Below are positions 15,816-44,888 of a stretch of 64,000 bases of DNA, piece by piece. The translations under genes and the position numbers were made by a program. The notes below the pieces were generated by a model that was given only the letters and a program-made list of their open reading frames with translations, was not told where the DNA came from and did not search any database. How positions within the stretch are numbered: position 1 is the first letter of the stretch; every line of letters begins with the position of its first letter. The stretch is taken from positions 56,321-120,320 of the forward strand of contig JAFGGD010000030.1 in NCBI GenBank assembly GCA_016930695.1, written 5' to 3'. The stretch is from Candidatus Eiseniibacteriota bacterium (GTDB lineage Bacteria > Orphanbacterota > Orphanbacteria > Orphanbacterales > Orphanbacteraceae).

Positions 15816-15863
15816 CCCTCGCGTGGGCTCCCCCCGGCCGGGAAATCGCCCCGGAAGGAGAGG

Positions 15864-17434: not shown

Positions 17435-17450
17435 TGGCATGAGCCTTGCG
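17435..17450 (+). promoter_or_regulatory. Sigma-54 promoter (TGGCAT-N5-TTGCG) upstream of kor operon
   Basis: -24 GG and -12 GC at canonical spacing, read directly. 89 nt upstream of the korD ATG and 186 nt downstream of the sigma-54 activator gene. Confidence 0.6.
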
Positions 17451-17538
17451 ATGCACGGATACGGACTTTTTATTCACGGTAAGGCGAAAGCCCGTTATTA
17501 ACCCCCAGTCCGCGGCACGCGGAGGAAGGGATTCCCGA

Positions 17539-17799: not shown

Positions 17800-18860
17800 T
17801 GGCCCGGAAACTGATGAAGGGGAACGTAGCGGTGGTCATGGGGGCGATCCTCGCGGACTGCCGCGCCTTCTTCGGATACCCGATCACGCCGGCGAGCGAG
17901 ATCACCGAGACGGCGGCGGACCTGTTCCCCCGCCTCGGCCGCGTCTTCCTGCAGGCGGAGAGCGAAGTGGCCGCGATCAACATGGTCTACGGCGCCGCGT
18001 CGACGGGAACCCGCACCATGACCGCCTCCTCTTCGCCGGGGATCAGCCTGAAGCAGGAAGGAATCTCTTACTGCGCCGGCTCGGAACTGCCGTGCGTGAT
18101 CGTCGACGTGGTGCGCGGCGGCCCGGGCTTGGGCAACATCGCGCCGGAACAGGCGGACTACTTCCAGATGGTCAAAGGGGGCGGCCACGGCAACTACAGG
18201 AACATCGTCCTCGCCCCCAACTGCGCCCAGGAGATGTGCGACTTCACCAAGCTCGCCTTCGACCTGGCCGATAAGTACCGCAACCCGGTGGTGATTCTCA
18301 CGGACGGTTTCATCGGGCAGATGATGGAGCCGGTGGAACTGGAATACGACCCGGTCACGGCGCCGAAGAAAGAGTGGTCCGTGGACGGAACGAGCGCCAC
18401 GCAGGGGAATCTGGTTTGCTCCATTCAGCTCGCCCCGGAGGAGCTGGAACAGCACGTGTACCATTTGTACGAGAAGTATGCAAAGGTCGAGGCGGCGGAG
18501 ATCCGCTTCGAGGAATACCTCACCGAAGACGCGGAGATCATCACCGTCGGATACGGCGTGATGTCCCGCATCCTCACGTCCGTGGTGGACGAGGCGCGCC
18601 GCCGGGGGATCAAGGCGGGCATGATCCGTCCCATCTCCCTTTGGCCCTTCCCGACGGAGATCATCCGGAAGTACGCCGACTCGGACCGGGTGAAGGAGTT
18701 CTTCGTGGGCGAGCTGGCGATGGGACAGATGGTGGAGGACGTCCGCCTCGCCGTGGAGGGCCGGAAGCCGGTCCGCCAGTTCCACCGCGTCGGCGGCATG
18801 GTGCCCGACGAGGCCGAGGTTCTGGAAGCCCTCATGGCGCCGAAGGGGGTGGCGAAGTGA
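17799..18860 (+). CDS. korA: 2-oxoacid:ferredoxin oxidoreductase alpha subunit
   Basis: TGATG overlap with the korD stop. N-terminus [35 protein letters not shown] is typical of POR/KOR alpha subunits. Confidence 0.85.
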
Positions 18861-20272
18861 CGGAAAAGATCATCGAGAAACCGCGAAGCATTCTGGACGA
18901 ATACAAATACAAACCGGGGGCGGACAAGACTTCGACCCACTACTGCCCCGGCTGCGGCCACGGCAACATCCACAAGCTGATCGGCATGGCCGTGGACGAG
19001 CTGGACGTGGCGGACCGCACCATCCTGATCAGCCCGGTCGGGTGCAGCGTTTTCGCCTACTACTACTTCAACTTCGGCAACATCCAGGTCCCCCACGGCC
19101 GGGCGCCGGCGGCGGCGACGGGCGCCAAACGAAGCCGTCCGGACTCGATCGTCATCTCCTACCAGGGGGACGGCGACCTGGCGGCCATCGGCGGGAACAA
19201 CATCCTGCAGGCGGCCAACCGCGGCGAGAACATCACCGTCTTTTTCGTGAACAACGCGATCTACGGGATGACCGGAGGCCAGATGGCCCCCACCACCCTC
19301 GTCGGACAGAGCACCTCCACCACCCCCCGGGGGCGCACGATCCGGAACGAGGGCTACCCGATCCGCGTGTGCGAGCTTCTCTCCTCGCTCGAGGCGCCGG
19401 CCTACCTCGAGAGGGTCGCCCTCATCGATCCCAAGCACGTCGCCAAGGCGCGCAAGGCGATCAAGAAGGCGATCCAGACTCAGGTCGAAGGGAAAGGTTT
19501 CTCGCTCGTGGAGATTCTCTCCCCCTGCCCGACGGGTTGGAAGATCACGCCGGTGCAGTCGCGCAAATGGATCGAAGAGACGATGCTTCCCATCTTCCCG
19601 CTGGGCGTCTACCGGGACAAGACCGGCGACGAACCCGGCTCATTCGACGAGCTTGATCCGGAACCGGTGGAGAGGGTGCTCGGCATCGGCGGCGACGACG
19701 GCGGCGATAAAGCGCCCCGGCAAAAACTGGACCGGGAGATCCGGATGAAGGTCGCCGGTTTCGGCGGCCAGGGAATCCTCTTCCTCGGCGAAGTGCTCGC
19801 GGACGCGGGTATGCACGCCGGCTATCACGTCACCTGGCTCCCTTCCTATGGACCGGAGATGCGGGGGGGAACGGCGAACTGCCAGGTCGTCGTCAGCGAA
19901 GAGCGGATCGGCGCGCCCCTGGTCTCGCGGCCGACCGTGCTGATCGCCATGAACCGGCCTTCCTTCGAGCGATTCACTCCCGACCTTCAGCCCGGGGGAA
20001 CGGTGATCTACGACTCCTCGTTGATCGAGAACGTGACCGTCCCGGAGGGGATCAAGGGATACGGCGTGCCGGCCACCAAGATCGCCGATGATCTGGGGAA
20101 CACCCGTGTGGCGAACGTGGTCGCGATGGGCGCCTACCTGGGGGTCACCGATCTCTTCTCGAGGGAGCAGGCCGAGAAGGCTCTCCGTCTGCACATCAAG
20201 AAGGAGAAGCTCATTCCCCTGAACCTGAAGGCGCTCGACGCCGGCATTCAGGCGGCCAAGGCGCTCCTGTAG
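18857..20272 (+). CDS. korB: 2-oxoacid:ferredoxin oxidoreductase beta subunit (TPP-binding) fused to gamma subunit
   Basis: GTG start overlapping the korA stop (GTGA). Beta-subunit hallmarks YCPGCGHG and GDGD...GGNN (TPP-binding). An in-frame C-terminal ~190 aa beginning [29 protein letters not shown] matches gamma subunits (GFGGQG...YGPEMRGG). Confidence 0.8.
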
Positions 20273-23780: not shown

Positions 23781-25532
23781 TCAGCGGATCAGCGTCATTT
23801 TGCGGACCACGCTCTCTCCGTTCGCATCGAGCCGGTAGAGATAGACGCCGGAAGCGACGGAGCGGCCGGCGTCCGTCGTGCCGTCCCAGACCTTCTCGTG
23901 ATCCCCCGCGCCGACCTCGCCCCGGAAGAGGGTTCGGACGATCCGTCCGGAGGGGTCGAGGACCGTCAACGCCACGCGGGAGGGATTCTCCACGCGGAAG
24001 GGAAGAACGGTGGCCGGGTTGAAGGGGTTCGGCCGGTTGGGAAGGAGAACGAAGGCGGCGGGCGGCGCGCCGGCGGCGATCGCCGTCGCCGTCTCGTGGA
24101 GGAAGGCGATGTTCGGGTCGTCCGGATCCCAGTTGGTGACCACCAGGTCGAGGTTCTCGGAATAGACGTAGTCGATCTCCACGTTCCCCGAACCGGCGGG
24201 CGGGGCGGAGGCGAGCGAGATCCATCCCTTGTCCAGGTCGTAGGCGTAGGCGCCGTAGGGGACGGGGTTCCCGTTCACCCGGATCGCGTCGATACGGCGG
24301 AGGGGGAAGTTTTCCGTATAAAACACCTTCGCCGCACCGTCGCCGCTCTTCGACTCACCGGTCACGGCGACGGAACCGAAGTTGTCCAGGTCCCCCCAGA
24401 CGCAGCTCTCCACCACGAGTCCTTTGGCCGGGTTGGGGAAGATGTAGGAGAAGGAGGCGGTCGGCTCCAGGGCGCCGCCGAGGTTCTCGTACACGACCGC
24501 ATGCTCCCACCAGCCTCCCGAGGCGAGGTCGAGGTCGCCGTCGCCGTCCGCGTCGGCGAGGGAGACGGCGGAGTAGTACTGCTTCGGGTCCGAACAGATC
24601 CAGGAGGCGTTCGCCTCCAGCGTGCCGCCGGTGTTGAAGTAAACGCGCACGTCCGACGCGCCGCCGAGCTGGCCGTTGTTCGCCACCGCCAGGTCGAGCA
24701 GACCGTCGCCGTTCACGTCCCCCCAATCGAGCTGGAGGGTGTTCTCCGTGTCCGCCGACTCCCAGAAGGGAACCGAATCGAGCCCCGCGCCGTTGTTCCG
24801 GTACACCCGGTTGGGGCCGAACTCGTTCGCCACCGCCAAGTCGAGGTCGCCGTCGCCGTCCAGGTCCCCCCACGCCACGTCGAGGGAGTAGTCCACCGGA
24901 CCGGTGGTCCAAACCGCGCCGGTCGTCAGCACGCCGCCGTCGTTCCTGTACAGCTTGCTCTTCTGCGGCACCGACGTGTAAGTCTCGCCGCAGGCGACCG
25001 CCAGGTCGAGGTCGCCGTCGCCGTCCGCGTCCCCCCACGCGAGATCGAAGCTGTTGTCCAGGTCGCCGGAAGTCCAAACCGGCAGCGAGGAGAAGGTTCC
25101 CCCCTGGTTCTCGTACACCTTGTCGTACTGGGGCGTCCCCGGATCGCCGAGCAGCGCGACGGCGAGATCCAGGTCGCCGTCGCCGTCCATGTCGCCCAAA
25201 TCGATGTGACAGTGGTAGCCCACGTCGGCGCTGCTCCAAGAGGCGGTTCTCTCGAGCATGCCGCCCAGGTTGTAGTACACGCGGTTCGGATTCCGAGCCA
25301 TGTCATTGCCGTTTCCGGTCACCAGATCGAGATAGCCGTCGCCATCCACATCGGCGAGAGCCCCGCCGGTGCTGTAGTCCCCGTCGATGGACCGCCAGTC
25401 CGGCGGTTTGATCAGGGGCACCACCCCACGCGCCGGGAGGGGTGCCGCGAGAAGGAGCGGCAGGGGAAGAAGGAGAAGGAGCGTTCGGAAAAAAGCGGGA
25501 AGGGATAGGGTTCGGATCCCGGCACCGGACAT
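23781..25532 (-). CDS. FG-GAP/VCBS-repeat beta-propeller protein with T9SS C-terminal sorting domain
   Basis: Signal peptide ...LLLLLPLPLLLAAPLPARG. Repeated DxDGDGxxDLxV calcium-binding repeats (DVDGDGYLDLVTG, DMDGDGDLDLAVA, DADGDGDLDLAVA, DLDGDGDLDLAVA, DVNGDGLLDLAVA, DADGDGDLDLASG). C-terminus ...SGVYLYRLDANGESVVRKMTLIR. The mirror ORF 23757-25508 (+) was rejected. Confidence 0.75.
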   Translation of the reverse strand: MSGAGIRTLSLPAFFRTLLLLLPLPLLLAAPLPARGVVPLIKPPDWRSIDGDYSTGGALADVDGDGYLDLVTGNGNDMARNPNRVYYNLGGMLERTASWSSADVGYHCHIDLGDMDGDGDLDLAVALLGDPGTPQYDKVYENQGGTFSSLPVWTSGDLDNSFDLAWGDADGDGDLDLAVACGETYTSVPQKSKLYRNDGGVLTTGAVWTTGPVDYSLDVAWGDLDGDGDLDLAVANEFGPNRVYRNNGAGLDSVPFWESADTENTLQLDWGDVNGDGLLDLAVANNGQLGGASDVRVYFNTGGTLEANASWICSDPKQYYSAVSLADADGDGDLDLASGGWWEHAVVYENLGGALEPTASFSYIFPNPAKGLVVESCVWGDLDNFGSVAVTGESKSGDGAAKVFYTENFPLRRIDAIRVNGNPVPYGAYAYDLDKGWISLASAPPAGSGNVEIDYVYSENLDLVVTNWDPDDPNIAFLHETATAIAAGAPPAAFVLLPNRPNPFNPATVLPFRVENPSRVALTVLDPSGRIVRTLFRGEVGAGDHEKVWDGTTDAGRSVASGVYLYRLDANGESVVRKMTLIR

Positions 25533-25608
25533 GATCGCACCTCGCTTGCGTGTGTTCGGCTTCGGCGTTCCGGGGAGCGTGGTGGGAGGGGAACGCTCGG
25601 CGTTCAGA

Positions 25609-25693
25609 TGCCGGAGGTCGGAATCGAACCGACACGAGGCTAAGCCTCGGGGGATTTTGAGTCCCCTGCGTCTACCAATTTCACCACTCCGGC
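25609..25693 (-). tRNA. tRNA-Leu (anticodon CAA)
   Basis: Reverse complement reads GCCGGAGTGGTGAAATTGGTAGACGCAGGGGACTCAAAATCCCCCGAGGCTTAGCCTCGTGTCGGTTCGATTCCGACCTCCGGCA. It has a 7-bp acceptor stem, anticodon loop CUCAAAA (CAA), a long variable arm and a GTTCGATTC T-loop. It is close to the E. coli leuX sequence as recalled. CCA is not encoded. Confidence 0.85.
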
Positions 25694-25836
25694 GCGATCT
25701 ACCTTATAATTCTACAGGTCGTTTCGCGCGCCGTCAACGGCTTCCCGAGAGGAGGGAGAACGCCTTTTCGTGTTGACGGAAACGAGCCGAAAGGGTATCT
25801 TCTCACTCTGATCGGCGCCTATTGCGAAGAGGAATG

Positions 25837-27002: not shown

Positions 27003-27217
27003 ATTTCTCACCGGCAAATACGAAGCGGTAGATGGGGATTCGTTCCCTGCGCTACCCGTGGTTTGCCGGGTCGTGGGCTGATCTCATTCGACTTGGATTC
27101 GAGTTTCACGGTTACCTGTGCACACGGTAGGGGCGGGGAACCCCCTTCTTTCCGCATCCCCCATTTCCTTTCGGCGCCCGCGCCGCCCTCGGCGATCCCC
27201 TTTGCCGCGGCGGAGGG

Positions 27218-30200
27218 TTGACGATGCGCTTCCTTCGAACTATTCCGGCGCTTTCGATCCTGGCCGGCGCGCTTCTCTGCGCGGCCCTCCCCGCGGCGGC
27301 GGTCGAAGGGCTCCTTCTGATCGCGCCGGGCGGGGCGGGCTGGACCGATTCGCGGGACGCCATCGAGGGAGCGGGCGGCCGTCTCCTCTTCGCCTTCCCA
27401 CCGGGGGGTGCGGTGATTGAGGGACCGGATTCCTTCTGGGAGAGGATCGCCGGGCTACGCGACGATTGGACCGTCCGTTTCGACGCGATCCCCGAGTCGG
27501 AGTCGGCCGGGTTCGAGCGGACCGCGCGTTTCGCGGCGCATGCTTGGAACAGGAGGCTCTCGCCGCCGGCGCGGGGGGCGCATCGCGCCGGAGAGCCGGG
27601 AGAGAGCCGCGCCGGTCCGGCCCCCGCCGGCGACGGGGGCATGATGAAGGCGCCTCCGGGCGGCAATTTCTTCGACACGAGCGAGTTCTTCCTCGGCACG
27701 GTCGCGATCGCCATCCTCCTTCCGGAGAGCGACGGTTCGATCGATCCCTCCACCGAAAACTGGTCCGCCGCGCGGATCGACTCCGTGATCGCCGAGGTGC
27801 AGGAGGGAGCGGCCTGGTGGATCGGGAAGGCGCCGGGCGGGCGGCTTTCCTTCGTGTATGAAATCCCCGATCCGATCCCCTGTCCCTATGAGCCGATCTC
27901 ACGCAACGCGTTCGTGGCGAAACAGGAGACCCTCTGGGTCCGCACCGTTTTCGATTCCCTGGGCTACGCCTCCGGCGACACATGGTTTCGCGGCCGTTCC
28001 TACCTGAACGACGTGCGGGACACCCACGGCGCCGACTGGGCGGTGGCGGTTTTCGTCGCCGACTCCGAGAACGATCCGGACGGGAGGTTCGCCAACAGCC
28101 TGATCGGGTTCTCCTACTACGGCGGGCCCTACCACTGCATGACCTACGACTGCGGTTCCTACGGGATCGGGGGGATGCGCGCCGTCGAGGCGCACGAGCT
28201 GGCGCACAATTTCTACGCCCTCGACGAATACTACTCGGCCCACAAGGGGTGCGCCCTGAAGGCGGGATACCTTTACGCGGAGAACCAGAACAGCGAATAC
28301 GGTTCCTGCATTCTCGACGAATCGTGCATCATGCGGGACGACCTGCAGGCGGCCTACGACTCGAGCGCCGCCTGCGTCTACACCCTCGCGCAGGTCGGGA
28401 TGGCCGACGACGACGAAGACGGGATCGCCGATATTCTGGACACCCATCCGAGCACCCTCTTCGACGCCTTCCCCGACTCGACCGACGATGTGACTCCGAC
28501 CGTCGGCGGCGCCGCCGAGGTGAATCCCCGCACCAACCGGAACGCGCTCGGCGAAGGGAACGACATCACGCTGAACACGATTTCCGCCGTGCAGGTCCGC
28601 ATAGACGGGGGGGAATGGCTCGTCGCGCAGCCGGCGGACGGCGTATTCGATTCCACCTGGGAAGCCTTCACCTTCACCGCTCCGGCGGTGACCGAGACCG
28701 CCCACGTCTTCGAGGCCCGGGCGATCAACTCCGAGGGGAACGCGGACACGGTCTTCGCCGCGGAGACGCTCCTCGTCTACGACGGCACGCCGCCGTCACC
28801 GGTGGCATCGCCCGTCGCCGCGGCCCTCGACTCATCGGTCACGCTGGCCTGGGTCGCGCCCGAGGACGGCGACTACGAAGCGGTGATGATCCGCTTCGGC
28901 ACCGCCGCCTACCCGGCGGACACGCTCGACGGTTTCCTCCTGGAACGGCGCGCCGGCGCCCCCGGCGAACCGGACACGACGATCCACGCCGGCCTCTTCC
29001 CGGACACCACCTACTATTACGCCTTCTTCTCTCTCGACGAGGCGTCCAACCCCTCGGCGCGCGCGGAGGCCACCGCCACGCCTCTCTACCCGCTCCCGCC
29101 GGCGGCCCTCCTCGCGCCCCCGGCCGGATCGCTTTATGTCGAAATCGAAACGGACTTTCTCTGGAGCGCGATCCCCCTCGATGATCCGCTCGACACATTG
29201 ATCGCCTACGCCGTGCAGATCGCCCGGGACAGCCTGTTCACCGACGTGCTGGTGGACAGCGAAGCGACCGCCGGATCGCCTGCGGACACCTTCTGGACCT
29301 GCGCCGGCCTCCCCGAGGGGACCATCCTCTGGTGGCGCGCGCGCGGCCTGGACGTCCTCTCCGGCACATGGGGCCTTTGGGGCGTGGGATCGCGATTCGC
29401 CACCCGGCTCCCCCTCGCGGGGATCGCCTTCCTCGACTCCACGCTCTCCGGCTACACCAACTTCGCCGACGGCGATTCGCTTCTCCCCAACGAGGACGCG
29501 CGCGTCGAGGTCCGTATCGAACCGGCGGACACTCTCGACATCGGCGGCTTCGCCGGCTGGGTCCGCTGGGAGGGAACCACGACCGACTCCGCGCCCCTCG
29601 CCCTGGACAGGAACGAGGGGGGATACGGCTACTGGCGGGGCGAGATCCCCTATGGAACCGCCTTCCACCGCGGGGACACGGTCTCCTTTTACGTCTCCGC
29701 CGGAGCCCCCTACCAAGCGGGTCTGCGGGACAAGAACGCCGGGGACGACTACGCCTTCACGGCGGGGAGGAGCAAGCTCGCCGCGCTCCACGTGCCGGAG
29801 CAGACGGACCCCTATGTGCCGATGCGGTATCCCTTCATCCCGAGCGACGCGGATCCGTCGATCACTCTGACGATCCGCGCCGAGCCTTCCGGGAACGTCA
29901 CCGGCGGCGCGGCCGTTCTCCGTGTCGCCGGCGATCCGAACTACTCTCTCTTCCCGGTCCTTTCGGACACGCTGATCGGCGGCGTCGATTACCTCACCGT
30001 TCTCGTCGATTCCACCTTCGACGTCGACGACGTGGTGGAGTACTACCTGCGGGTCTGGGGTGACCCGTCGCTTTGGGACACCACCTTCCTCTACGGGACC
30101 AACGACACGAGCCGGACCGCCTCCGTCGAGGCGAGCGCCGCGGGCGCGCCCTTCACCTTCCTCGTGCACAGCGTGACCGGGCTTCCCGCGGCGGGAGACG

Positions 30201-30490
30201 GGCTCCTCCCGTCCCGAAACGAACTTCTTCCGAACGCGCCCAATCCGTTCAACCCGACGACCACCCTCTCCTTCGCACTCACCCGCGCCGAGCGCGTCAG
30301 CCTCGCACTCTTCGACGTGCGGGGACGGCTGGTCCGCGTGCTGATGGACGACGCCCGCCCGCCGGGCTGGCACGAAATCGCCTGGAACGGCTTGGACGGC
30401 GGCGGGAAGGAAGCGCCGAGCGGCGTCTACTTCTCCGTGCTCCGGGGGAACGGCTGGAACCAAACCCGCAAGATCGTCCTCATCCGTTAA
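27218..30490 (+). CDS. Large secreted zinc metallopeptidase-like protein (HEXXH) with T9SS C-terminal sorting domain
   Basis: Signal peptide MTMRFLRTIPALSILAGALLCAALPAAA. MRAVEAHELAHNFYALDEYY contains HEXXH with a downstream acidic residue. 1090 aa with a Gly/Asp-rich beta-rich body. C-terminus ...SGVYFSVLRGNGWNQTRKIVLIR. Confidence 0.65.
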   Translation: MTMRFLRTIPALSILAGALLCAALPAAAVEGLLLIAPGGAGWTDSRDAIEGAGGRLLFAFPPGGAVIEGPDSFWERIAGLRDDWTVRFDAIPESESAGFERTARFAAHAWNRRLSPPARGAHRAGEPGESRAGPAPAGDGGMMKAPPGGNFFDTSEFFLGTVAIAILLPESDGSIDPSTENWSAARIDSVIAEVQEGAAWWIGKAPGGRLSFVYEIPDPIPCPYEPISRNAFVAKQETLWVRTVFDSLGYASGDTWFRGRSYLNDVRDTHGADWAVAVFVADSENDPDGRFANSLIGFSYYGGPYHCMTYDCGSYGIGGMRAVEAHELAHNFYALDEYYSAHKGCALKAGYLYAENQNSEYGSCILDESCIMRDDLQAAYDSSAACVYTLAQVGMADDDEDGIADILDTHPSTLFDAFPDSTDDVTPTVGGAAEVNPRTNRNALGEGNDITLNTISAVQVRIDGGEWLVAQPADGVFDSTWEAFTFTAPAVTETAHVFEARAINSEGNADTVFAAETLLVYDGTPPSPVASPVAAALDSSVTLAWVAPEDGDYEAVMIRFGTAAYPADTLDGFLLERRAGAPGEPDTTIHAGLFPDTTYYYAFFSLDEASNPSARAEATATPLYPLPPAALLAPPAGSLYVEIETDFLWSAIPLDDPLDTLIAYAVQIARDSLFTDVLVDSEATAGSPADTFWTCAGLPEGTILWWRARGLDVLSGTWGLWGVGSRFATRLPLAGIAFLDSTLSGYTNFADGDSLLPNEDARVEVRIEPADTLDIGGFAGWVRWEGTTTDSAPLALDRNEGGYGYWRGEIPYGTAFHRGDTVSFYVSAGAPYQAGLRDKNAGDDYAFTAGRSKLAALHVPEQTDPYVPMRYPFIPSDADPSITLTIRAEPSGNVTGGAAVLRVAGDPNYSLFPVLSDTLIGGVDYLTVLVDSTFDVDDVVEYYLRVWGDPSLWDTTFLYGTNDTSRTASVEASAAGAPFTFLVHSVTGLPAAGDGLLPSRNELLPNAPNPFNPTTTLSFALTRAERVSLALFDVRGRLVRVLMDDARPPGWHEIAWNGLDGGGKEAPSGVYFSVLRGNGWNQTRKIVLIR

Positions 30491-30569: not shown

Positions 30570-30599
30570 TTGACAGCGCACGGCCCCCTCTGCTACGTT
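30570..30599 (+). promoter_or_regulatory. Sigma-70-like promoter (TTGACA-N18-TACGTT) of the BMC operon
   Basis: Consensus -35 and a 4/6 -10 with 18-nt spacer, about 70 nt upstream of the BMC-H start. RBS AAGGAGGAG ahead of the ATG. Confidence 0.45.
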
Positions 30600-30670
30600 C
30601 CACGAGATTCTCGAGGAAACACACCCCGATCCGAGCCGCCCGTCGGCCGGATCGTCGCAAGGAGGAGAGC

Positions 30671-30964
30671 ATGGGCGAAGCGTTGGGCATGATCGAGTGT
30701 CGCGGGTTCATCGGCGTGGTGGAAGCCGCGGACGCGATGGTGAAGGCGGCCAAGGTCACCCTGGTGCACTACGAACGGATCGGCGGCGGTTACGCCACGG
30801 CGATCATCCGCGGAGACGTGGCCGCCGTGCGCGCCGCGACCGAAGCGGGTTCCGCCGCGGCGAGCAAGGTGGGCGAACTGGTCTCGGTGCATGTCATTCC
30901 CCGCCCCCATTCGAACCTGGAAGAGGTGCTCCCCATCGGGAAGCGCTCCGGCGACAACGACTGA
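30671..30964 (+). CDS. Bacterial microcompartment shell protein BMC-H (PduA/EutM/CcmK family)
   Basis: [76 protein letters not shown] matches the canonical BMC-domain sequence almost residue by residue. Confidence 0.9.
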
Positions 30965-30989
30965 ACGAGGTTCCGGGGAGGGAGCGTAG

Positions 30990-31283
30990 ATGGTACTGGG
31001 CAGGGTGGACGGCACGGTGGTCGCCACGCGGAAAGACGCCAAGCTGGAGGGCCTCAAGCTCCTCCTGGTCCGCGTGGTCGATCATCAGGGTAATCCGTCC
31101 GGCGGCGCCTTCGTCGCCGTCGATTCCGTGGGCGCCGGCGTCGGCGAGGTGGTTCTCTGCGCCCAAGGAAGTTCCTCCCGCCTCACCCCCGCCACGGAAA
31201 ACCGGCCGGTCGACGCGGTGATCCTCGCCATCGTCGATCTGGTCGAGGCGGAGGGGCGGGTCACCTACCGGAAGGACGCGTAG
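30990..31283 (+). CDS. Bacterial microcompartment vertex protein BMC-P (EutN/CcmL/PduN family), copy 1
   Basis: [31 protein letters not shown]...[15 protein letters not shown] shows the typical EutN/CcmL N-terminal pattern (M.LG.V.GTVV.T.K...L.G.KLL.V). Confidence 0.85.
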
Positions 31284-31288
31284 GACCG

Positions 31289-32713
31289 GTGGAGAAGGGC
31301 GATTCCTACATCGACGCGATCGTCGACCGCGTGCTGGAGAGGCTGACCGCGGGGGCGTCCGGGACGCGCCCGGCCCCGTCCACGGCGGGGGACGGCCTCT
31401 TCGACACCCTGGACGAAGCGGCGCGCGCCGCGGCGGAGGCGTTTCGCGCATTCTCCGCGCTCCCGCTGGAGGCGCGCCGCAGGACGGTCGCCGCCGTCCG
31501 CCGCGCGGCGGTGGAGGGGGCGGACGAACTCTCCCGCCTCGCCGTGGCGGAGACCGGCATGGGGCGTGTGGAGGACAAGGTCCGCAAGAACGTCCTCGCC
31601 GCCGAGAAAACGCCCGGACCGGAGATCCTCGATCCCGACGCGGTGACCGGCGACCACGGGCTCACGCTGACCGACCGCGCCCCCTACGGCGTGATCGGAT
31701 CGATCACCCCCTCCACCAACCCGAGCGAAACGATCATCCACAACGGCATCTCCATGATGGCCGGCGGGAACGCCGTCGTCTTCAACGGACACCCGGGCGC
31801 CAAGGAGACCACCGCGCGGACCATCGTCCTCCTGAACCGCGCCATCCACGACGCGGGCGGGCCTCCCTTCCTCTTCACCGCCGTGCGGGAGCCGACCATC
31901 GAAACCGCGCAGGCGCTGATGACGCACCCGGGGATCCGCCTTCTGGTGGTGACCGGCGGGCCGGGAGTGGTGGCGGCGGCGATGCGGAGCGGGAAGAGGG
32001 TGGTGGCGGCCGGGCCGGGAAATCCGCCCGCCGTGGTGGACGAAACCGCCGACGTGGAGAGGGCGGGGAAGGATCTGGTCCTCGGTTCCTCGTTGGACAA
32101 CAACATCATCTGCGTCGACGAGAAAGAGGTGATCTGCGTCGCCGCCGTCGCGGATCGCCTTCGCGACGCGATGGTCCGCGCCGGCGCGCACCTTCTGGAA
32201 CCGAACCGCCTGGAGGCGCTGGAAAAGCTGGTCCTCGCGGAGAACGCCGGCCCGGGACGACACGGCGCCCCGCGCAAGGAATGGGTCGGACGGGACGCGA
32301 GCCGCATTCTCGACGCCCTCGGCGTCCCCGCCGCGGGGGATCCCCGAATCGTTCTGGTCGAGACGGAGCCGGATCACCCGTTCGTCTGGACCGAGCTTCT
32401 CATGCCGGTCATCCCTCTCTGCCGCGTGCCGGACGTGGACGCGGCGATCGACCTGGCGGTCCGGGTGGAGCAGGGCTTCGGTCACACCGCCAGCATGCAC
32501 TCCCGGAACCTGGACGCCCTCAGCCGGATGGCCCGAGCGGTGAATACATCCATTTTCGTGAAGAACGGCCCCAACTACTCCGGACTCGGTTTCGGCGGCG
32601 AGGGGCACACCAGCTTCACCATCGCCAGCCCCACCGGCGAGGGGCTGACCGACGCCCGCACCTTCACCCGGCCGCGCCGTTGCGTGCTCGTCGACCGGTT
32701 CCGAATCGTTTAG
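31289..32713 (+). CDS. CoA-acylating aldehyde dehydrogenase (PduP/EutE-like, BMC-associated)
   Basis: GTG start. AGPGNPPAVVDETADVERAGKDLVLGSSLDNNIICVDEKEV aligns closely to the PduP active-site region (AGAGNPPV..DETADIEKA...SFDNNLPCIAEKEV), including the catalytic Cys. The N-terminal amphipathic helix IDAIVDRVLERL looks like an encapsulation peptide. Confidence 0.85.
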   Translation: MEKGDSYIDAIVDRVLERLTAGASGTRPAPSTAGDGLFDTLDEAARAAAEAFRAFSALPLEARRRTVAAVRRAAVEGADELSRLAVAETGMGRVEDKVRKNVLAAEKTPGPEILDPDAVTGDHGLTLTDRAPYGVIGSITPSTNPSETIIHNGISMMAGGNAVVFNGHPGAKETTARTIVLLNRAIHDAGGPPFLFTAVREPTIETAQALMTHPGIRLLVVTGGPGVVAAAMRSGKRVVAAGPGNPPAVVDETADVERAGKDLVLGSSLDNNIICVDEKEVICVAAVADRLRDAMVRAGAHLLEPNRLEALEKLVLAENAGPGRHGAPRKEWVGRDASRILDALGVPAAGDPRIVLVETEPDHPFVWTELLMPVIPLCRVPDVDAAIDLAVRVEQGFGHTASMHSRNLDALSRMARAVNTSIFVKNGPNYSGLGFGGEGHTSFTIASPTGEGLTDARTFTRPRRCVLVDRFRIV

Positions 32714-32722
32714 GCGGAAACC

Positions 32723-33280
32723 ATGGAAGCGCTCGCCCTGCTCGAACTGGACTCCATCGCCGGGGGATACCGCGCCGCCGACGCGTTGATGAAAGCCGCG
32801 CGGGTGCGGCTCCTGGAGATGCGCCCCCTGGACCCGGGCAAGTTCCTGATTCTCTTTCGCGGCCCGGTGGGGGAGGTGGACGCCGCCTATCGGCGCGGCC
32901 GGGAGACCGCCGGCGAGGATTTGGTGGACGAGGTCTACCTGCCCGCCGCCCACCCGTCCCTTTTCCCGCTGCTCGAGGGGAAACGGCCGGCGGCGTCCAT
33001 CGAGGCGCTCGGCGTGATCGAGACCGGCTCCGCCGCCTCCGCGGTGTGCGCGGCGGACGCGGCGGCGAAAGCGGCGGAAGTCGCGCTTCTCCGGGTGCAT
33101 CTCGCCCGAAGGATCGGCGGCAAGGGATATCTGCTCCTCACCGGCGGCCAGGCGGACGTGGAGGCGGCGGTCGCCGCGGGAGCGGCGCGGGCCCGGGAGC
33201 GGGAACGGCTGGTGGCGGAGGTGGTGATCCCCGCGCCGACCGAGGAGATCTTCGAACGGCTCACCGCGGAGTGGCTCTAG
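32723..33280 (+). CDS. Tandem-BMC-domain shell protein BMC-T (PduT-like, 185 aa)
   Basis: Two BMC-like halves: LALLELDSIAGGYRAADALMKAARVRLLEMRP... and LGVIETGSAASAVCAADAAAKAAEVALLRVHLARRIGGKGYLLLTGGQADVEAAV. The size matches PduT-type BMC-T proteins. Confidence 0.7.
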   Translation: MEALALLELDSIAGGYRAADALMKAARVRLLEMRPLDPGKFLILFRGPVGEVDAAYRRGRETAGEDLVDEVYLPAAHPSLFPLLEGKRPAASIEALGVIETGSAASAVCAADAAAKAAEVALLRVHLARRIGGKGYLLLTGGQADVEAAVAAGAARARERERLVAEVVIPAPTEEIFERLTAEWL

Positions 33281-33281
33281 C

Positions 33282-33551
33282 ATGCGGATCGGCGACGTGA
33301 TCGGCACGGTGACGGCGACGCAGAAAGCGGAGAGCCTCGTCGGCAGGCGCCTTCTTCTGGTGCAACCGTTGGACGAGCGGGGCCGCCCGACCGAGGCGCC
33401 CCTCGTGGCGATCGACACGGTGAGCGCCGCCCCCGGCCAGAGGGTTTACTTCGTGGAGAAGCGAGAGGCGGCCAAGGCGTTCTTCGGACCTCAACTGCCG
33501 AGCGACGTGACCATCCTGGGAATCGTCGATCGGATCGACCTCGAGCCATGA
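33282..33551 (+). CDS. BMC vertex protein BMC-P, copy 2
   Basis: MRIGDVIGTVTATQKAESLVGRRLLLVQPLD...VAIDTVSAAPGQRVY has the EutN/CcmL pattern. The start is 2 nt after the BMC-T stop. Confidence 0.8.
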   Translation: MRIGDVIGTVTATQKAESLVGRRLLLVQPLDERGRPTEAPLVAIDTVSAAPGQRVYFVEKREAAKAFFGPQLPSDVTILGIVDRIDLEP

Positions 33552-33850
33552 TTCTCGGCGACGTCATCGGCACGGTAACTTCCACCGTCAAGCACGGGTC
33601 CCTCGCGGGGAGACGTCTCCTCTTGGTCCGCCCCGTCACGCCGGAAGGGGAGCCGTCGGGGGAGACGGAGATCGCCCTCGATTCGGTGGACGCCGGGATC
33701 GGCGACCGGGTGCTGGTCAACCGCGAGGGACGCTCCGCCGAAGCGATTTTGGGCGCCGACGGCATCCCGGTCCGCAGCGTGATCACGGCGGTGGTGGACG
33801 AGGTGGTGAGCGGCGGGCTCGTCGCCTACCGGAAAGGCGATGCGCCGTGA
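33548..33850 (+). CDS. BMC vertex protein BMC-P, copy 3
   Basis: ATGA overlap with copy 2. MILGDVIGTVTSTVKHGSLAGRRLLLVRPV...ALDSVDAGIGDRVLV. Confidence 0.8.
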   Translation: MILGDVIGTVTSTVKHGSLAGRRLLLVRPVTPEGEPSGETEIALDSVDAGIGDRVLVNREGRSAEAILGADGIPVRSVITAVVDEVVSGGLVAYRKGDAP

Positions 33851-34593
33851 ATCCGTCCGACCCCACCTCGCAGATCATCGAGGTCGGCCGTCTTCTTTAT
33901 GACCGTAGTTTATTGATCGGTACCGAGGGAAACCTCTCGATCCGCCTGGAGAGAAACCGGTTTCTGGTCACCGCCGCCGGTGTCTGCAAGGGGAGACTCC
34001 GGTCGATCGACCTGGTCACCGTCGACGGCGAAGGTCGAAAGATCGCCGGCGGCGGGCGGCCCTCTTCGGAGATCCTCCTTCACCTCGCCCTCTACCGCCT
34101 CCGGCCGGAGATCCGCGCCGTGGCGCACGCCCACCCGCCCACCGCCACCGGTTTCGCCGTCGCCGGCGTTTCCCTGGACGGGGCGGTCCTTCCCGAGGTC
34201 GTCGTCTCCGTCGGTTCCGTTCCGACCGCCCCTTACGGCACACCCTCCACGGAATCGCTCGCGGAGGCGGCGCTTCCCGTCGCCCGTTGCCACGACGCTT
34301 TTCTCCTAAAGAATCACGGCGCGGTCACTCTGGGCCGGAAGGATCTCTGGGAGGCGTTCCATCGGATGGAGATGGTGGAGAGCCTGGCGCGGATCACGCT
34401 CACCGCGCGCCTCCTCGGCGGCGCTCAGCCGCTCTGCGGGGACGAGGTGGAGCGCCTGATCCGTCTCCACGGCGATCCCACGCCGCCCGGCTGCGGCTTT
34501 CCCGGCGGAGGGCCGCCCCCGACGCCGGAGGAGGAGGATCTGATCGGGAAGGCGCTCCGTCGCCTCGAGGAGCGTCTCGGCGGGCGGGATTGA
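33847..34593 (+). CDS. Class II aldolase/adducin-family enzyme (fuculose/rhamnulose-1-phosphate aldolase-like) with C-terminal encapsulation-peptide-like helix
   Basis: GTGA overlap with the upstream gene. Class II aldolase metal/catalytic motifs SSEILLHLALY, AVAHAHPP and LLKNHGAVTLG. A Pro/Gly linker (PGCGFPGGGPPPTPEEE) then an amphipathic helix DLIGKALRRLEERLGG at the extreme C-terminus. Confidence 0.8.
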   Translation: MNPSDPTSQIIEVGRLLYDRSLLIGTEGNLSIRLERNRFLVTAAGVCKGRLRSIDLVTVDGEGRKIAGGGRPSSEILLHLALYRLRPEIRAVAHAHPPTATGFAVAGVSLDGAVLPEVVVSVGSVPTAPYGTPSTESLAEAALPVARCHDAFLLKNHGAVTLGRKDLWEAFHRMEMVESLARITLTARLLGGAQPLCGDEVERLIRLHGDPTPPGCGFPGGGPPPTPEEEDLIGKALRRLEERLGGRD

Positions 34594-34614: not shown

Positions 34615-34655
34615 AACGGCCGGCGCCGGACGCGTCGGCCGTTCTCTTTTCTCTT
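34615..34655. terminator. Bidirectional terminator between BMC operon and rpsT
   Basis: AACGGCCG-gcgccggacgcgt-CGGCCGTT 8-bp stem, then CTCTTTTCTCTT on the + strand and an A-rich tract (GAAAAACGGGAAAAAC) upstream on the other strand. Lies between convergent 3' ends. Confidence 0.55.
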
Positions 34656-41204: not shown

Positions 41205-43579
41205 ACGTGAACCGCGCTCTCCGCCCAGCCGCCGCGGCGCTTCTCGCCGTCTCCGTCCTCACCGTCCCCGCGGCGCCGGCGGATATTTCACCCCTCGACC
41301 TTCCAGACCGGCCCATCGGCTGGCTCGCCCTCCCGGACGACTCGATCCTCGCCCAACCCGCTCCCGCTCGAGAGGGGATTCTCCGCATCTGCGCCGAGAT
41401 GGGGTGGGCGGAGCGGGAGTACCGCCTCCGCGCCGCCCTCCAGGAGAGACCCCGCGTAACCGACCCGCGGCTACGGGCCAGGGAGAGGAGCCGAATCGCC
41501 CGTCTGGCGGTCCGCGCCGGAAGAGACGGGGAAGCGGTTCTTTGGATCGAAAGAATCGGCGCGGAGGAGCCCTTCTTCTCCGCGGCGGCCGCACTCGCCG
41601 AGCTCCGTCTCGGCCGGACCGAGGCGGGCGCGGCGCGGCTCGAGCGGGTCCTCGAGGAGGGCGGTTTCGACGCGCCCGCGGCGGACCTCCTCCGTTACCG
41701 GCTCGCCGGAGCGCTCGGGATGAGCGGAGAGACCGACCGCTCCATCGCGCTCTACCGTTCCCTCGCCGCCGACCGGGAGAGCCGCTTCCGCTCTTCCTCC
41801 CGGCGGGAAGCGGCGAGGCTCCTCTTCGACAGCGGCGACGCCGGGGACGCCCTCGATCTCCTCCGCGAGGGATACGGCGCGTCCCTCGCCGATCTGACGG
41901 ACCGGGACCTTCTGTCGCGAGCGGCCCGCTACGAGCGGGGCCGCGGGCGAAACGCGAACGCGGCGGCCCTCTGGTCCCGTCTGCTCGAAACGTGGCCCGG
42001 GGACCGGCGCGCCCGGGAGGCGTACCGGGTCCTCCTCGCGATGCAAGAGGAGGGGAAAACGGAAAGGAACGAGCGCCTCCCCCTGCTTGGCGCCCGCGCC
42101 TCCGCCCGGAGCGGGAGAACGGACGAGGCGCTCCGCATCCTCGCCCCTCTGCTCGCCCTCCCGGAATCGGATCCTCTCGCCGGCGAGGCCGCCCTGGAAG
42201 CGGGCCGCGCGCTGTACGAGGCGGGCCGTTTTCGCGAAGCGCTCCGCCGCGTGCTTCCCCTCTCGGCGGGGGAGGGGGCGAGCGCGCGGGAAGCGCTCCT
42301 CTACGTCGCCCGCTGCCGTAAAAAGTCGGGGGAGTGGCGGGAGTCGATCGAGTCGTACAGGGAGTACACGCGGCGCTATCCGTCGAGTTCCATCGCGCCG
42401 GAGGCGGGGTGGGAGATCGCCTGGCGGCTCCGCCTCGCGGGCGAGAACGCCGAGGCGGCGGACGCATTCGCCGATCTGGAGCGCCTCTTCCCGCGGAGCG
42501 ACTACGCGGTCCGGGCCCCGCTTTACCGGTCCTTCTGCCTGGCGGCGACCGGGCGCGCCGGGGAGGCGTTCCAAGCCCTGGAAAAGATGACCGGCGGCGG
42601 AGGGGGCGGAAAGGACCGTGAGGACGCCCTTTTCTGGAGGGCGGAAGCCCTCGCGGATCGAGGAGAGAAGGAGGGCGCCGAGGAGGTCTACAGGGAGGTG
42701 GCGGAAGAATACGCCGAGACCTACTACGGGATCCGCGCGGCGAGCCGGATCGGGCTCCGCACCGTGCTCCCGCCGCCGGTGGGGAGGGGCGGCGACGATC
42801 CCCTTCTCCGTTGGATCCGCTCCTGGCACGGCGGCGCGAAAGGGACGGAACCGGACACGAATCTCCTCATCCTTTACCGGGACCTGGGAGAGAACGACGA
42901 GGCGCGGCGCGAGGCGAACCGGCTGCGGAAACGACACGAGAACGATCCGGAGGCGCTCCTCGGCATCGCGCGGGAATGCCGTCGCCTGGGACTCTTCGAC
43001 CGCGCCATCCCCTGCGCGCGCCGAATCCAAGCCCTCGCGGAAAAGAAGGGAGAAAACGCCCTCGTTCCGGAGCTCCTCGCCTTGATCTATCCCCTCGGTT
43101 ACCTGGACCGCGTGGAGGAGGCGATCCGTCCCTACCGCGTCTTCGGTCCCTTCCTCGTCCTCGCGCTGATGCGTCAGGAGAGCTGGTTTCACGAAGAGGC
43201 GCACTCCCCGGCGGACGCGCGCGGTCTACTGCAGGTCCTCCCCTCCACGGGGCGGCGGATCGCGCGCGCCCTAGGCGAGCCGGACGACTTCCCGTCGGAG
43301 GAACTCTTCCGGGCGGACCGGAACATCCGCTACGGGCTGTGGTATCTTCAGAGCCTGATCGACCGTTACGACGGCGACCTCGCCGTCGTGGCGAGCGCCT
43401 ACAACGCGGGGGAGGGGATGGCGGACCTTTGGCGGGCGGGGCTCACGCCGGGCGAACCGGGGGGCTACATCGAGAGGCTTCATTTTTCGGAGACCCGGGA
43501 CTACGTGAAGCGCGCCCTGGCCGGTTACTGGATCTACCGCTATCTGTACCAAAACATTGCTTCGGAACTGTATCAATAA
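41195..43579 (+). CDS. Soluble lytic murein transglycosylase (TPR superhelix + SLT domain)
   Basis: Signal peptide then multiple TPR-like Ala/Leu/Arg-rich repeats. SLT catalytic region LALMRQESWFHEEAHSPADARGLLQVLPSTG...YNAGEG (ES...GLMQ-type motif). The start may be a nearby GTG. Confidence 0.75.
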   Translation: MGVNVNRALRPAAAALLAVSVLTVPAAPADISPLDLPDRPIGWLALPDDSILAQPAPAREGILRICAEMGWAEREYRLRAALQERPRVTDPRLRARERSRIARLAVRAGRDGEAVLWIERIGAEEPFFSAAAALAELRLGRTEAGAARLERVLEEGGFDAPAADLLRYRLAGALGMSGETDRSIALYRSLAADRESRFRSSSRREAARLLFDSGDAGDALDLLREGYGASLADLTDRDLLSRAARYERGRGRNANAAALWSRLLETWPGDRRAREAYRVLLAMQEEGKTERNERLPLLGARASARSGRTDEALRILAPLLALPESDPLAGEAALEAGRALYEAGRFREALRRVLPLSAGEGASAREALLYVARCRKKSGEWRESIESYREYTRRYPSSSIAPEAGWEIAWRLRLAGENAEAADAFADLERLFPRSDYAVRAPLYRSFCLAATGRAGEAFQALEKMTGGGGGGKDREDALFWRAEALADRGEKEGAEEVYREVAEEYAETYYGIRAASRIGLRTVLPPPVGRGGDDPLLRWIRSWHGGAKGTEPDTNLLILYRDLGENDEARREANRLRKRHENDPEALLGIARECRRLGLFDRAIPCARRIQALAEKKGENALVPELLALIYPLGYLDRVEEAIRPYRVFGPFLVLALMRQESWFHEEAHSPADARGLLQVLPSTGRRIARALGEPDDFPSEELFRADRNIRYGLWYLQSLIDRYDGDLAVVASAYNAGEGMADLWRAGLTPGEPGGYIERLHFSETRDYVKRALAGYWIYRYLYQNIASELYQ

Positions 43580-44888
43580 GATCGGAATCGTTCTGCTTCT
43601 CGCGGGCGCCGCCGCCGCGGGAGGGCCGGACGAGTCCACCCTGGTCTATCCCCCCTTCCGTCACGACTTCGGCCTCCACCACGTGAGCGACTTTCACCTT
43701 CGCCTCTACACGGGAAACCGGGACCGCTTTCTCGCTCCGAAGGGGATCGCGGCGGTGAAGCTGATCGAGAGGGACCGGCCGGACAAGACCGGCGACGACG
43801 ACGAGCTGACCGTTTTCGGCCTCAACTCGGCGGCCCACCAACTCATCTACAACGATTCCCAGACCTCGATCCGCGTGTACGGCGGCAAGGGGAGCGGCGA
43901 GGGGGAGTTTCTCTTCCCCTGGGCGATCGCCGCGTCCCCCTCCGGCGATGTCTATGTCGCGGATACCGGAAACGACCGGATCGTCCATCTACGCTACCGG
44001 GGCGGGGACCTCTTCTTCCTGCGCTCCTTCGAGGAGGCGAAGGGGGACACCGCGCGTTTCCGCTCCCCCCGCGGCGTGGCCCTCGCCACCGACGGAACGA
44101 TTTACCTGTGCGACACCGGAAACCAACGCGTGCTGGCGATCGACCGCACCGGTCGGCTTCTGCGCGTTCTCGGCGGCGCGGAGATCTTCTCGCACCCCGA
44201 GGCGATCGCGGTGGTCGACTCCGGCGACCCCTGGACCTGGCGCAAGGAGGACTTCCTGATCGTGGTGGACCGGAACGGCAAGCGGATCCGCAAGCTCTCG
44301 CCGGACGGGACGATCCTCGCCGAAACCGACGCGGAGACCCTCGGATCGCCCACATCCCTCTTCCGCGGCGTCGCCGTCGACCATTACCATCAGGTTTGGC
44401 TCACCGACGAGGCGAACCACCGTCTCGTCAAGCTGGACCGGTCTCTCCGCTTCCTCGCCTTTTTCGGCCGCGAAGGGGGCGGGGACGGCGAGTTCCGTTC
44501 CCCCTTCGGCATCACCATCTGGCGGCGGTACGGGCAGGTCTTCGTTTCCGAGAGGAGCGGCGCGCAGTACTACTGGATCGGCGCGGACCTTCTCGATCCG
44601 CGGGTGGAGAAGGGGGCCGACTCCCCGGGCGCGCGCTTTTTCTTCCGTCTCACCGAGCGCGCGCGGCTCACCGTCACGATCGAAGACCGCCGGGGAAGGT
44701 CGGTGCGCGTCCTCGCCGAGGAGAGGCTTTTCCCGCCCGGAGAGCGCCGCCTCATCTGGGACGGCCTGAACGACTCCGGCGAACCGGCCCCGCCGGGCGC
44801 CTACCGGGCCCGCTTCGAGATACGGGCGACCTACTCCTCGTCCAAGCACTTTCAAAAGAAAGTTGCAATCCCGTTCGACGTCGGATAG
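43557..44888 (+). CDS. Secreted NHL-repeat beta-propeller protein with C-terminal Ig-like (FlgD-like) domain
   Basis: NHL blades YVADTGNDRIVHL, YLCDTGNQRVLAID, WLTDEANHRLVKLD and FVSERSGAQYYW. The C-terminal LIWDGLNDSGEPAPPGAYRARFEI resembles T9SS-CTD/FlgD-Ig sequence but is not terminal. Confidence 0.55.
   Translation: MLRNCINKIGIVLLLAGAAAAGGPDESTLVYPPFRHDFGLHHVSDFHLRLYTGNRDRFLAPKGIAAVKLIERDRPDKTGDDDELTVFGLNSAAHQLIYNDSQTSIRVYGGKGSGEGEFLFPWAIAASPSGDVYVADTGNDRIVHLRYRGGDLFFLRSFEEAKGDTARFRSPRGVALATDGTIYLCDTGNQRVLAIDRTGRLLRVLGGAEIFSHPEAIAVVDSGDPWTWRKEDFLIVVDRNGKRIRKLSPDGTILAETDAETLGSPTSLFRGVAVDHYHQVWLTDEANHRLVKLDRSLRFLAFFGREGGGDGEFRSPFGITIWRRYGQVFVSERSGAQYYWIGADLLDPRVEKGADSPGARFFFRLTERARLTVTIEDRRGRSVRVLAEERLFPPGERRLIWDGLNDSGEPAPPGAYRARFEIRATYSSSKHFQKKVAIPFDVG

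Follow-up and report, generated by a model that had tools for sequence, protein, structure and literature searches.

Which kind of bacterial microcompartment (BMC) is encoded by a compact seven-gene locus of Candidatus Eisenbacteria, and which reaction would it enclose? The locus is located in a 64-kb stretch of contig JAFGGD010000030.1 (positions 56,321 to 120,320), here called the window, and an earlier note on this DNA had read it as a PVM-like metabolosome for fucose- or rhamnose-derived lactaldehyde. The analysis covered the window and, for locus comparisons, the 80 closest aldehyde dehydrogenase (AldDH) loci, which were mapped with the seven window proteins. The seven genes form a single operon closed by a terminator-like hairpin. 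This operon probably encodes a compact, aldehyde-oxidising BMC (metabolosome) of the HO/SPU3/SPU5/MIC7 lineage.

Seven intact, co-directional open reading frames (ORFs) occupy positions 30671-34593 of the + strand and encode, in this order, a BMC-H, a first BMC-P (P1), an AldDH, a BMC-T, two further BMC-P (P2 and P3) and a class II aldolase. Pfam E-values over the seven products range from 1e-24 to 1e-45 and are all far beyond the cut-offs. The features of the operon are as follows; two of them are terminal helices that resemble encapsulation peptides (EPs).

30570..30599, + strand: promoter-like element, TTGACA, 18-nt spacer and TACGTT (weak -10); read directly, missed by a consensus scan and suggestive at most
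30659..30667, + strand: ribosome-binding site AAGGAGGAG (AAGGAGG) preceding the BMC-H start codon, from reading of the sequence
30671..30964, + strand: BMC-H hexamer shell protein, 97 aa, with KAAK and PRPH interface motifs (PF00936, E 7e-30)
30990..31283, + strand: BMC-P1 pentamer, 97 aa (PF03319, 6e-30)
31289..32713, + strand: CoA-acylating AldDH, 474 aa, GTG start (PF00171; NF011927)
31304..31345, + strand: N-terminal EP-like helix of AldDH, SYIDAIVDRVLERL, aa 6-19, from motif conservation across loci
32723..33280, + strand: BMC-T, standard tandem, 185 aa (two PF00936 domains, 3e-38)
33282..33551, + strand: BMC-P2 pentamer, 89 aa (PF03319, 2e-26)
33548..33850, + strand: BMC-P3 pentamer, 100 aa (PF03319, 3e-24)
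33847..34593, + strand: class II (metal-dependent) aldolase-family enzyme, 248 aa, GTG start (PF00596, 9e-45)
34531..34578, + strand: C-terminal EP-like amphipathic helix of the aldolase, EEDLIGKALRRLEERL, aa 229-244, from the hydrophobic moment
34615..34643, + strand: terminator-like hairpin, 12-bp stem with 9 GC pairs, between the aldolase gene and the convergent rpsT

The gene content, order and tight linkage given in the earlier note were thus recovered, with all ORFs carrying the domains it named, and the four models it had proposed for a check (PF00936, PF03319, PF00171 and PF00596) all matched far above their cut-offs. Its description of overlapping ATGA/GTGA junctions is accurate for two of the six, P2/P3 (ATGA) and P3/aldolase (GTGA), and not for the other four, which are gaps of 25, 5, 9 and 1 nt. 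The locus does not begin at 30570, as had been stated: the first gene starts at 30671, and position 30570 is the noncoding, -35-like hexamer TTGACA. Two PF00936 proteins, one of them a tandem, are co-located with three PF03319 proteins (E 1e-24 to 1e-38), which is what defines a BMC locus in general. No further BMC or EutN ORFs were found across the 64 kb. A reading of the genes as pseudogenes, or of the locus as fragmentary, was rejected because the seven ORFs are intact and the same operon boundaries are kept in three other genomes, L003, L086 (GCA_025782575.1) and L087 (GCA_029262235.1).

BMC-H and BMC-P1 point to the HO type. The best natural PDB match of BMC-H is Haliangium HO-5815 (E 2e-39, 69% identity), and that of BMC-P1 is the HO pentamer of 5V74 (E 9e-34, 67% identity); the HO shell proteins are represented by PDB 5V74/5DJB. 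The order H-P-AldDH-T parallels that of Hoch_5815 to Hoch_5812. BMC-P1 groups in the P1 clade together with HO_5814 and is an ortholog of the Haliangium main-locus BMC-P. P1, P2 and P3 each belong to a deep orthologous clade of their own, common to related loci of all phyla compared, and together they are the BMC-P triplet of Sutter et al. 2021. According to this catalog, BMC-P genes occur most often singly or as three paralogs, and the triplet is termed 'characteristic' for HO, SPU, MIC7, ACI, FRAG and PVM. Three BMC-P with one BMC-H, which had appeared as an unusual shell stoichiometry, is therefore standard for catalogued BMC types, and the same applies to the combination of BMC-T and aldolase: taken for an oddity in the earlier note, it is already described for HO type II and SPU5.

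BMC-T is indeed a PduT-like tandem protein by fold and family, with the PduT-type trimers as closest PDB matches (3NWG, 4e-41; PduT, 8e-38) and a weaker match to HO-T1 (5DIH, 4e-24). The PduT model TIGR02526 gave 115 bits and did not reach its cut-off of 250. In PduT, Cys38 ligates a 4Fe-4S cluster; the window BMC-T has Asp37 (32831-32833) at this position and thus no pore Cys. Judged from the sequence, the three Asp residues of a BMC-T trimer would form an acidic pore. Asp is the pore residue throughout this Eisenbacteria clade, within the motif P[LI]DPGK[FY]. Spirochaete and Auribacterota relatives have Cys at the equivalent position and MIC7-like Eisenbacteria have Thr or Ser, whereas in SPU3-like loci His or Ser predominates.

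A CoA-acylating AldDH with its catalytic Cys is the signature of a metabolosome. The window AldDH scored 642 bits with the EutE/PduP-type NCBIfam model NF011927 (cut-off 403), and its catalytic Cys276 lies in DNNIICVDEKE. The best PDB match, with the Cys column conserved, was 5JFL (E 4e-129), an entry labelled 'Aldehyde dehydrogenase' that we take to be the R. palustris GRM3 PduP. By these matches the protein is assigned to the CoA-acylating PduP/EutE class, in agreement with the earlier note. The EP-like motif SYIDAIVDRVLERL precedes a linker rich in Ala, Gly, Pro, Ser and Thr (aa 20-35). It is kept in all related loci inspected, from many phyla, and is followed by a variable linker in each. 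N-terminal EPs on AldDH have been reported for HO, SPU5 and MIC7 (Sutter et al. 2021, Supplementary Data 2).

The last gene of the operon encodes a class II aldolase, as had been proposed. Its best PDB matches are 6VOQ/6VOP, followed by FucA (E about 1e-20). Glu75, His94, His96 and His157 align with Glu73, His92, His94 and His155 of E. coli FucA; the Zn ligands and the catalytic Glu of the class II aldolase core are all present. The narrower assignment to the fuculose/rhamnulose-phosphate type is unproven. The aldolase reached no NCBIfam equivalog cut-off, and the models for FucA, RhaD, MtnB, OtnC and ribulose-1-P aldolase were all far below (TIGR01086, 71.6 bits vs 400; NF005302, 100 vs 264; NF002963 (RhaD), 38 vs 170). 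The best partial matches include the model for haloarchaeal ribulose-1-phosphate aldolase.

The C-terminal helix EEDLIGKALRRLEERL of the aldolase has a hydrophobic moment of 0.72, the maximum in the protein (mean 0.26, sd 0.15), and lies behind a Pro/Gly linker (aa ~208-228). An equivalent helix was found in nine related loci with five phylum-level labels (L003, L045, L023, L028, L059, L047, L008, L072 and L086). The terminal helices of the aldolase and AldDH both have the form expected of BMC encapsulation peptides, and they would target the two enzymes to the shell. In most related BMC-linked aldolases, a Cys knuckle, CxxCxxC(xxC), also separates the catalytic domain from the terminal helix (tails of L003, L086, L087, L008, L023, L038, L057 and L072 were compared; the knuckle reads GGCGNCSVCTRCS in L086 and PCNQCGMC in L008, for instance). 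The window aldolase retains a single Cys at aa 213-221 (34483-34509, PPGCGFPGG) together with the helix; in L087 the knuckle is kept and the helix is absent. From its pattern, the knuckle may be a metal-binding element.

Further support for the placement is provided by the 80 loci. The core order H-P1-AldDH-T-P2-P3 is found in most of them, under more than 10 phylum-level labels that include Eisenbacteria, Krumholzibacteriota, Fibrobacteraceae, Neomarinimicrobiota, Gemmatimonadales, Acidobacteriota, KSB1 and Spirochaetota. The best AldDH matches are Eisenbacteria metagenome-assembled genomes (MAGs; 69% identity, one genome per GTDB species), and the AldDH relatives come from Eisenbacteria and from loci that resemble SPU3, HO or MIC7. 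None of the 80 carries a Planctomycetes or Verrucomicrobia label. To the core, BMC-Tdp is added in 50 loci, DeoC aldolase in 45 (sometimes fused to RpiB, the SPU3-like arrangement) and a PduS homolog in 11. Ten loci from Eisenbacteria or unlabelled MAGs (e.g. L013 and L019) have a second BMC-H and no aldolase, and correspond to the catalog's MIC7; L016, which ends at a contig end, groups with these ten. A class II aldolase is present in 12 loci, in nine of them directly after P3, and three (L047, L008 and L072) resemble the SPU5 arrangement.

The flanking ORFs of the 80 loci were clustered, and representatives were scanned with Pfam. The recurrent neighbours were limited to Tdp, DeoC or RpiB-DeoC, PduS, TIM and regulators. 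Others (sulfatase, esterase, ABC transporter, FBPase) are lineage-specific, and this clustering and scan linked no sugar kinase, isomerase or transporter consistently to the aldolase-bearing loci. Two aldolase-bearing loci with KSB1 and Deferribacteres labels contain an RpiB-DeoC fusion: L038 (fusion at 5356-6771, aldolase after P3 at 12834-13520) and L079 (6073-8463 and 12857-13513), which also has a SorC-type regulator. This combination is not mentioned in the SPU3 text of the catalog (Sutter et al. 2021). L057 likewise pairs DeoC with a class II aldolase. In L004 (7639-9415), a deeper-branching Eisenbacteria locus, H-P1-AldDH-T-P2 is followed by a class 1 fructose-1,6-bisphosphatase, which replaces P3 and the aldolase. 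Among more distant aldolase homologs, P0086 and P0117 belong to ACI-type loci; P0047 and P0044 lie in non-BMC contexts and are uninformative on the substrate.

How does the operon compare with the catalogued types? MIC7 is described from Ca. Latescibacteria and Ca. Eisenbacteria with AldDH only, two BMC-H (one specialised), the triplet, a standard BMC-T (Ts) without pore Cys and a satellite Tdp (Sutter et al. 2021). The window locus shares with it the phylum, the N-terminal EP on AldDH, the triplet, a basal BMC-H, a Ts without pore Cys, the absence of PduS and the gene order H-P-AldDH-T-P-P. Unlike MIC7, it has a single BMC-H and contains a class II aldolase whose C terminus bears an EP. Its AldDH is only ~58-59% identical to those of MIC7-like Eisenbacteria loci and forms a clade apart from theirs (92% vs 100% bootstrap), and the chromosomal context is different.

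HO type II has an aldolase in the main locus, a single H, three P and one Ts (Sutter et al. 2021). These traits are matched by the single BMC-H (69%), the triplet (P1, 67%), the one BMC-Ts and the pfam00596 aldolase behind the two BMC-P, and the AldDH N-terminal EP is likewise shared. HO differs by two BMC-Tdp (CsoS1D-like and CcmP-like), which are absent from the 64 kb, although a satellite copy elsewhere in the genome is possible. It differs also by its Myxococcota/Deltaproteobacteria host. HO loci are further characterised by a BMC-Ts of the Ts_auburn_HO clade; by PDB matches, the window BMC-T is nearer to PduT/3NWG (1e-38 to 1e-41) than to HO-T1 (4e-24). SPU5 combines an AldDH N-terminal EP and a pfam00596 aldolase with C-terminal EP with PduS and a Cys-pore Ts (Sutter et al. 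2021). Both EPs, one standard BMC-H, the triplet and the absence of RpiB are common to SPU5 and the window; PduS, the Cys-pore Ts and the DeoC and Tdp sometimes present in SPU5 set it apart, since the window has an Asp pore and no PduS-like Pfam match among its gene calls. The SPU markers DeoC (PF01791) and RpiB (PF02502), present in 45 of the 80 related loci, are likewise absent from the window.

The resemblance to PVM is restricted to the pairing of class II aldolase with acylating AldDH and to the triplet. As far as the PVM descriptions in Axen 2014 and Sutter et al. 2021 go, which summarise Erbilgin 2014, this type has two BMC-H, three BMC-P (the third from the purple clade) and no BMC-T, is restricted to Planctomycetes and Verrucomicrobia, and also contains PTAC (phosphotransacylase), acetate kinase, a DeoR regulator and a lactate dehydrogenase (LDH)-like NAD+ recycler. 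The statement in the earlier note that PVM loci lack BMC-T was right. The window has one H, one T and three P in an Eisenbacteria host, and none of PTAC, acetate kinase, DeoR or an LDH-like dehydrogenase. PVM-like loci are described from Firmicutes hosts, with AldDH, PTAC and BMC-P related to GRM5 (Sutter et al. 2021); the window differs from them by its Eisenbacteria host and the absence of PTAC. ACI loci share an aldolase ~50-54% identical with a C-terminal extension and the triplet; they differ in the order aldolase-H-P-P-P-2-hydroxyacid dehydrogenase, in an AldDH on a satellite locus and in the lack of BMC-T. On architecture, taxonomy and nearest-neighbour evidence, the locus is neither PVM nor PVM-like, and the proposal of a PVM-like metabolosome is not supported. 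Because shell matches, gene order, BMC-P clades and catalog descriptions agree, the sequences place it in the already catalogued HO/SPU3/SPU5/MIC7 lineage. It is an Eisenbacteria sublineage of this group, a MIC7-like shell minus the second BMC-H plus an HO-II/SPU5-style aldolase. The deeper branches of the AldDH neighbour-joining tree have bootstrap values of only 10-62%, and for this reason no sister group (MIC7-like, Spirochaete Tdp plus aldolase, or other) is claimed.

The operon is a stable feature of its host lineage. The window proteins are identical to GenBank MBN1825773.1 to MBN1825779.1, deposited as Candidatus Eisenbacteria and already named there as EutM (BMC-H, MBN1825773.1), EutN/CcmL family, BMC domain-containing and class II aldolase. 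At least three other genomes, L003, L086 and L087, have the same operon in the same chromosomal position. L003 is syntenic with the window along its entire 21 kb, in the common order FG-GAP protein, ~1,100-aa FlgD_ig protein, operon, rpsT, outer-membrane protein, purN, purC, purH, guaA and SLT; the arrangement in L086 and L087 matches. Because the flanking genes are the same in all three, the operon is regarded as a vertically inherited feature of one Eisenbacteria clade, whose AldDH sequences group with 92% bootstrap. The variant clade comprises this genome, L002, L003, L086, L087 and, more distantly, L045, and is characterised by one BMC-H, an Asp-pore Ts, the triplet, the AldDH N-terminal EP, the aldolase C-terminal EP and no Tdp, PduS or DeoC nearby. 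As an aldolase-bearing Eisenbacteria variant that fits no single 2021 type exactly it is mildly new; on Eisenbacteria microcompartments, MIC7 and the Haliangium class II aldolase, literature searches yielded the catalogs of 2014 and 2021 and, apart from these, a single phylum description without bearing on the subject.

The gene calls of the window were scanned with Pfam from end to end for enzymes that could complete a pathway. No match to PTAC (PF06130/PF01515) or alcohol dehydrogenase was obtained in the 64 kb, so the core for cofactor recycling is not seen; these enzymes are therefore encoded elsewhere, or cofactors cross the shell. HO and MIC types share this gap (Sutter et al. 2021; catalogs). 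Nor did the 64 kb contain acetate kinase, a DeoR regulator, lactaldehyde reductase, fucose or rhamnose isomerases or kinases, nucleoside phosphorylase, or any other kinase or isomerase of the candidate pathways.

If the shell is built like its homolog from Haliangium, the HO shell of known structure, BMC-H hexamers would tile the facets, with pseudo-hexameric BMC-T trimers interspersed among them that have a pore Asp in place of the PduT Fe-S Cys, and the three BMC-P paralogs would supply the vertex pentamers. The terminal helices and their linkers suggest that the aldolase is recruited through its C-terminal EP and AldDH through its N-terminal EP. Going by knowledge of the family, the Zn-dependent aldolase might then split a ketose-1-phosphate into dihydroxyacetone phosphate (DHAP) and a short, reactive aldehyde inside the shell. 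AldDH would convert this aldehyde with NAD+ and CoA into acyl-CoA, which would keep the aldehyde out of the cytosol.

Several points weigh against this reading. The pathway as seen is incomplete, with no BMC-Tdp, PTAC, alcohol dehydrogenase, kinase or isomerase nearby. No single catalogued type is matched exactly: MIC7 differs by its two BMC-H and the lack of an aldolase, HO by its two Tdp, and SPU5 by PduS and a Cys-pore Ts. Tyr113 of FucA is not conserved in the window aldolase, whose top partial NCBIfam match is the model of the decarboxylase OtnC (121 bits vs a cut-off of 250). The aldolase-bearing Eisenbacteria clade is known from sequences alone, and for HO and MIC7 the catalog gives the function as 'enigmatic' or unknown (Sutter et al. 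2021).

What remains is the question of the substrate. A fucose/rhamnose metabolosome of the PVM kind, in which L-fuculose-1-P or L-rhamnulose-1-P would yield DHAP and L-lactaldehyde and the latter lactyl-CoA, draws on the shared enzyme pair and triplet, on the FucA structures among the PDB matches and on the carbohydrate degradation that the catalog suggests for other pfam00596-bearing BMCs (Sutter et al. 2021). It is unlikely, given that the 64 kb lacks PTAC, acetate kinase, DeoR and lactaldehyde reductase as well as isomerases and kinases for fucose or rhamnose, that the PVM shell has a different composition, that H and P1 are nearest to HO with AldDH relatives outside Planctomycetes and Verrucomicrobia, and that the FucA and RhaD models (72-100 bits vs 264-400, and 38 vs 170) and the FucA Tyr113 position speak against such a specificity. 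Most relatives combine the same shell and AldDH module with DeoC, and L038, L057 and L079 combine it with both aldolases. A small aldehyde that derives from a sugar phosphate or a nucleoside is therefore no less plausible than the lactaldehyde of PVM. Scavenging of nucleosides or sugar phosphates as in SPU types is the stronger of these candidates, possible if still doubtful. Here the aldolase would replace or complement DeoC and cleave a pentulose-1-phosphate, such as 5-deoxy-ribulose-1-P or ribulose-1-P, into DHAP and acetaldehyde or glycolaldehyde, which the same AldDH lineage would oxidise. This idea is consistent with the DeoC (PF01791) and BMC-Tdp that most of the closest relatives carry beside the same H-P-AldDH-T-P-P core, with the fusions in L038 and L079 (the two scanned), with AldDH identities of 55-63% between DeoC-type and aldolase-type loci, which suggest similar small aldehydes, with the haloarchaeal ribulose-1-phosphate aldolase model among the best partial matches, and with the nucleic acid-derived substrate proposed for HO and SPU (Sutter et al. 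2021). The argument is one of context and analogy, however; the window holds no DeoC, RpiB, nucleoside phosphorylase, kinase or isomerase, the aldolase-bearing loci have no conserved kinase or isomerase neighbour, and the NCBIfam score is far under its cut-off.

The PF00596 protein could also be no aldolase at all but another enzyme of this fold (decarboxylase, dehydratase or epimerase), or it could be an unencapsulated neighbour. We regard this as very unlikely; in such a case the aldehyde for AldDH would come from an enzyme encoded elsewhere, as is assumed for MIC7. The partial match to OtnC, a 3-oxo-tetronate 4-phosphate decarboxylase model, and the rank of 6VOQ/6VOP above FucA in the PDB would fit such a protein, as would MIC7 relatives in the same phylum without the gene and the L087 protein without a terminal helix. 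Yet the gene is translationally coupled to P3 through the GTGA overlap, directly follows P3 in nine of the 12 loci that carry it among the 80, and recurs in HO, SPU5, ACI, MUF2, MIC4 and PVM. Its product bears a conserved EP-like helix, and a decarboxylase giving DHAP would supply no aldehyde to the co-encoded AldDH. The HO/SPU3/SPU5/MIC7-type metabolosome with an aldolase therefore remains the preferred reading of the operon. A bolder version of it, which we consider rather unlikely, is that the operon represents a naturally minimal, self-contained HO/MIC7/SPU5-type organelle, made up of five shell genes and two EP-tagged enzymes and lacking Tdp, PduS, PTAC and alcohol dehydrogenase.

The rest of the window is in accordance with a high-GC host (GC content 0.62-0.71) that bears a type IX secretion system (T9SS) and is unrelated to Planctomycetes and Verrucomicrobia, as the earlier note had recognised. 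A PorV-like outer-membrane gene is located at 2216-3241, and at least six large secreted-type proteins end in FlgD_ig or Por_Secre_tail domains of the T9SS sorting type, with bodies made of FG-GAP, NHL or NosD/beta-helix. These features are:

2216-3241; 7852-9927; 10062-11180; 23781-25703(-); 27131-30490; 43509-44888; 54450-56426: PorV-like gene plus FlgD_ig/Por_Secre_tail proteins

Upstream, a block at 12909-20272 contains a PAS histidine kinase, a radical-SAM protein, a sigma-54 response regulator and a two-gene 2-oxoacid:ferredoxin oxidoreductase (POR_N/PFOR_II and TPP_enzyme_C/POR domains), which suggests an anaerobic or fermentative lifestyle. Two intervals of ~1.1-1.5 kb each, 6333-7851 and 60311-61396, had no long high-GC3 ORF in gene calling; frame +1 of 6333-7850 contains 13 stops.

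The genes were already annotated as microcompartment proteins in GenBank, and the overall picture of BMC diversity is unchanged. The locus adds an aldolase-bearing Eisenbacteria sublineage of at least five genomes to the HO, SPU5 and MIC7 microcompartment family, of which HO serves as the chief model of BMC shell structure. The description of MIC7 gave no signature enzyme (Sutter et al. 2021), and a related lineage in its phylum with an EP-tagged class II aldolase in the operon provides a concrete candidate. With one H, one T, three P and two predicted natural encapsulation peptides, the operon also offers a compact set of parts for shell engineering. If the minimal organelle were real, it would require passage of acyl-CoA, CoA and NAD(H) through the shell, for which the Asp-lined BMC-T pore specific to this clade might be the route. 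In that event, the class II aldolase would be the long-missing signature enzyme of the HO/MIC7/SPU5 group, interchangeable with DeoC, and the structurally best-known HO-type shell would gain a testable two-enzyme pathway.

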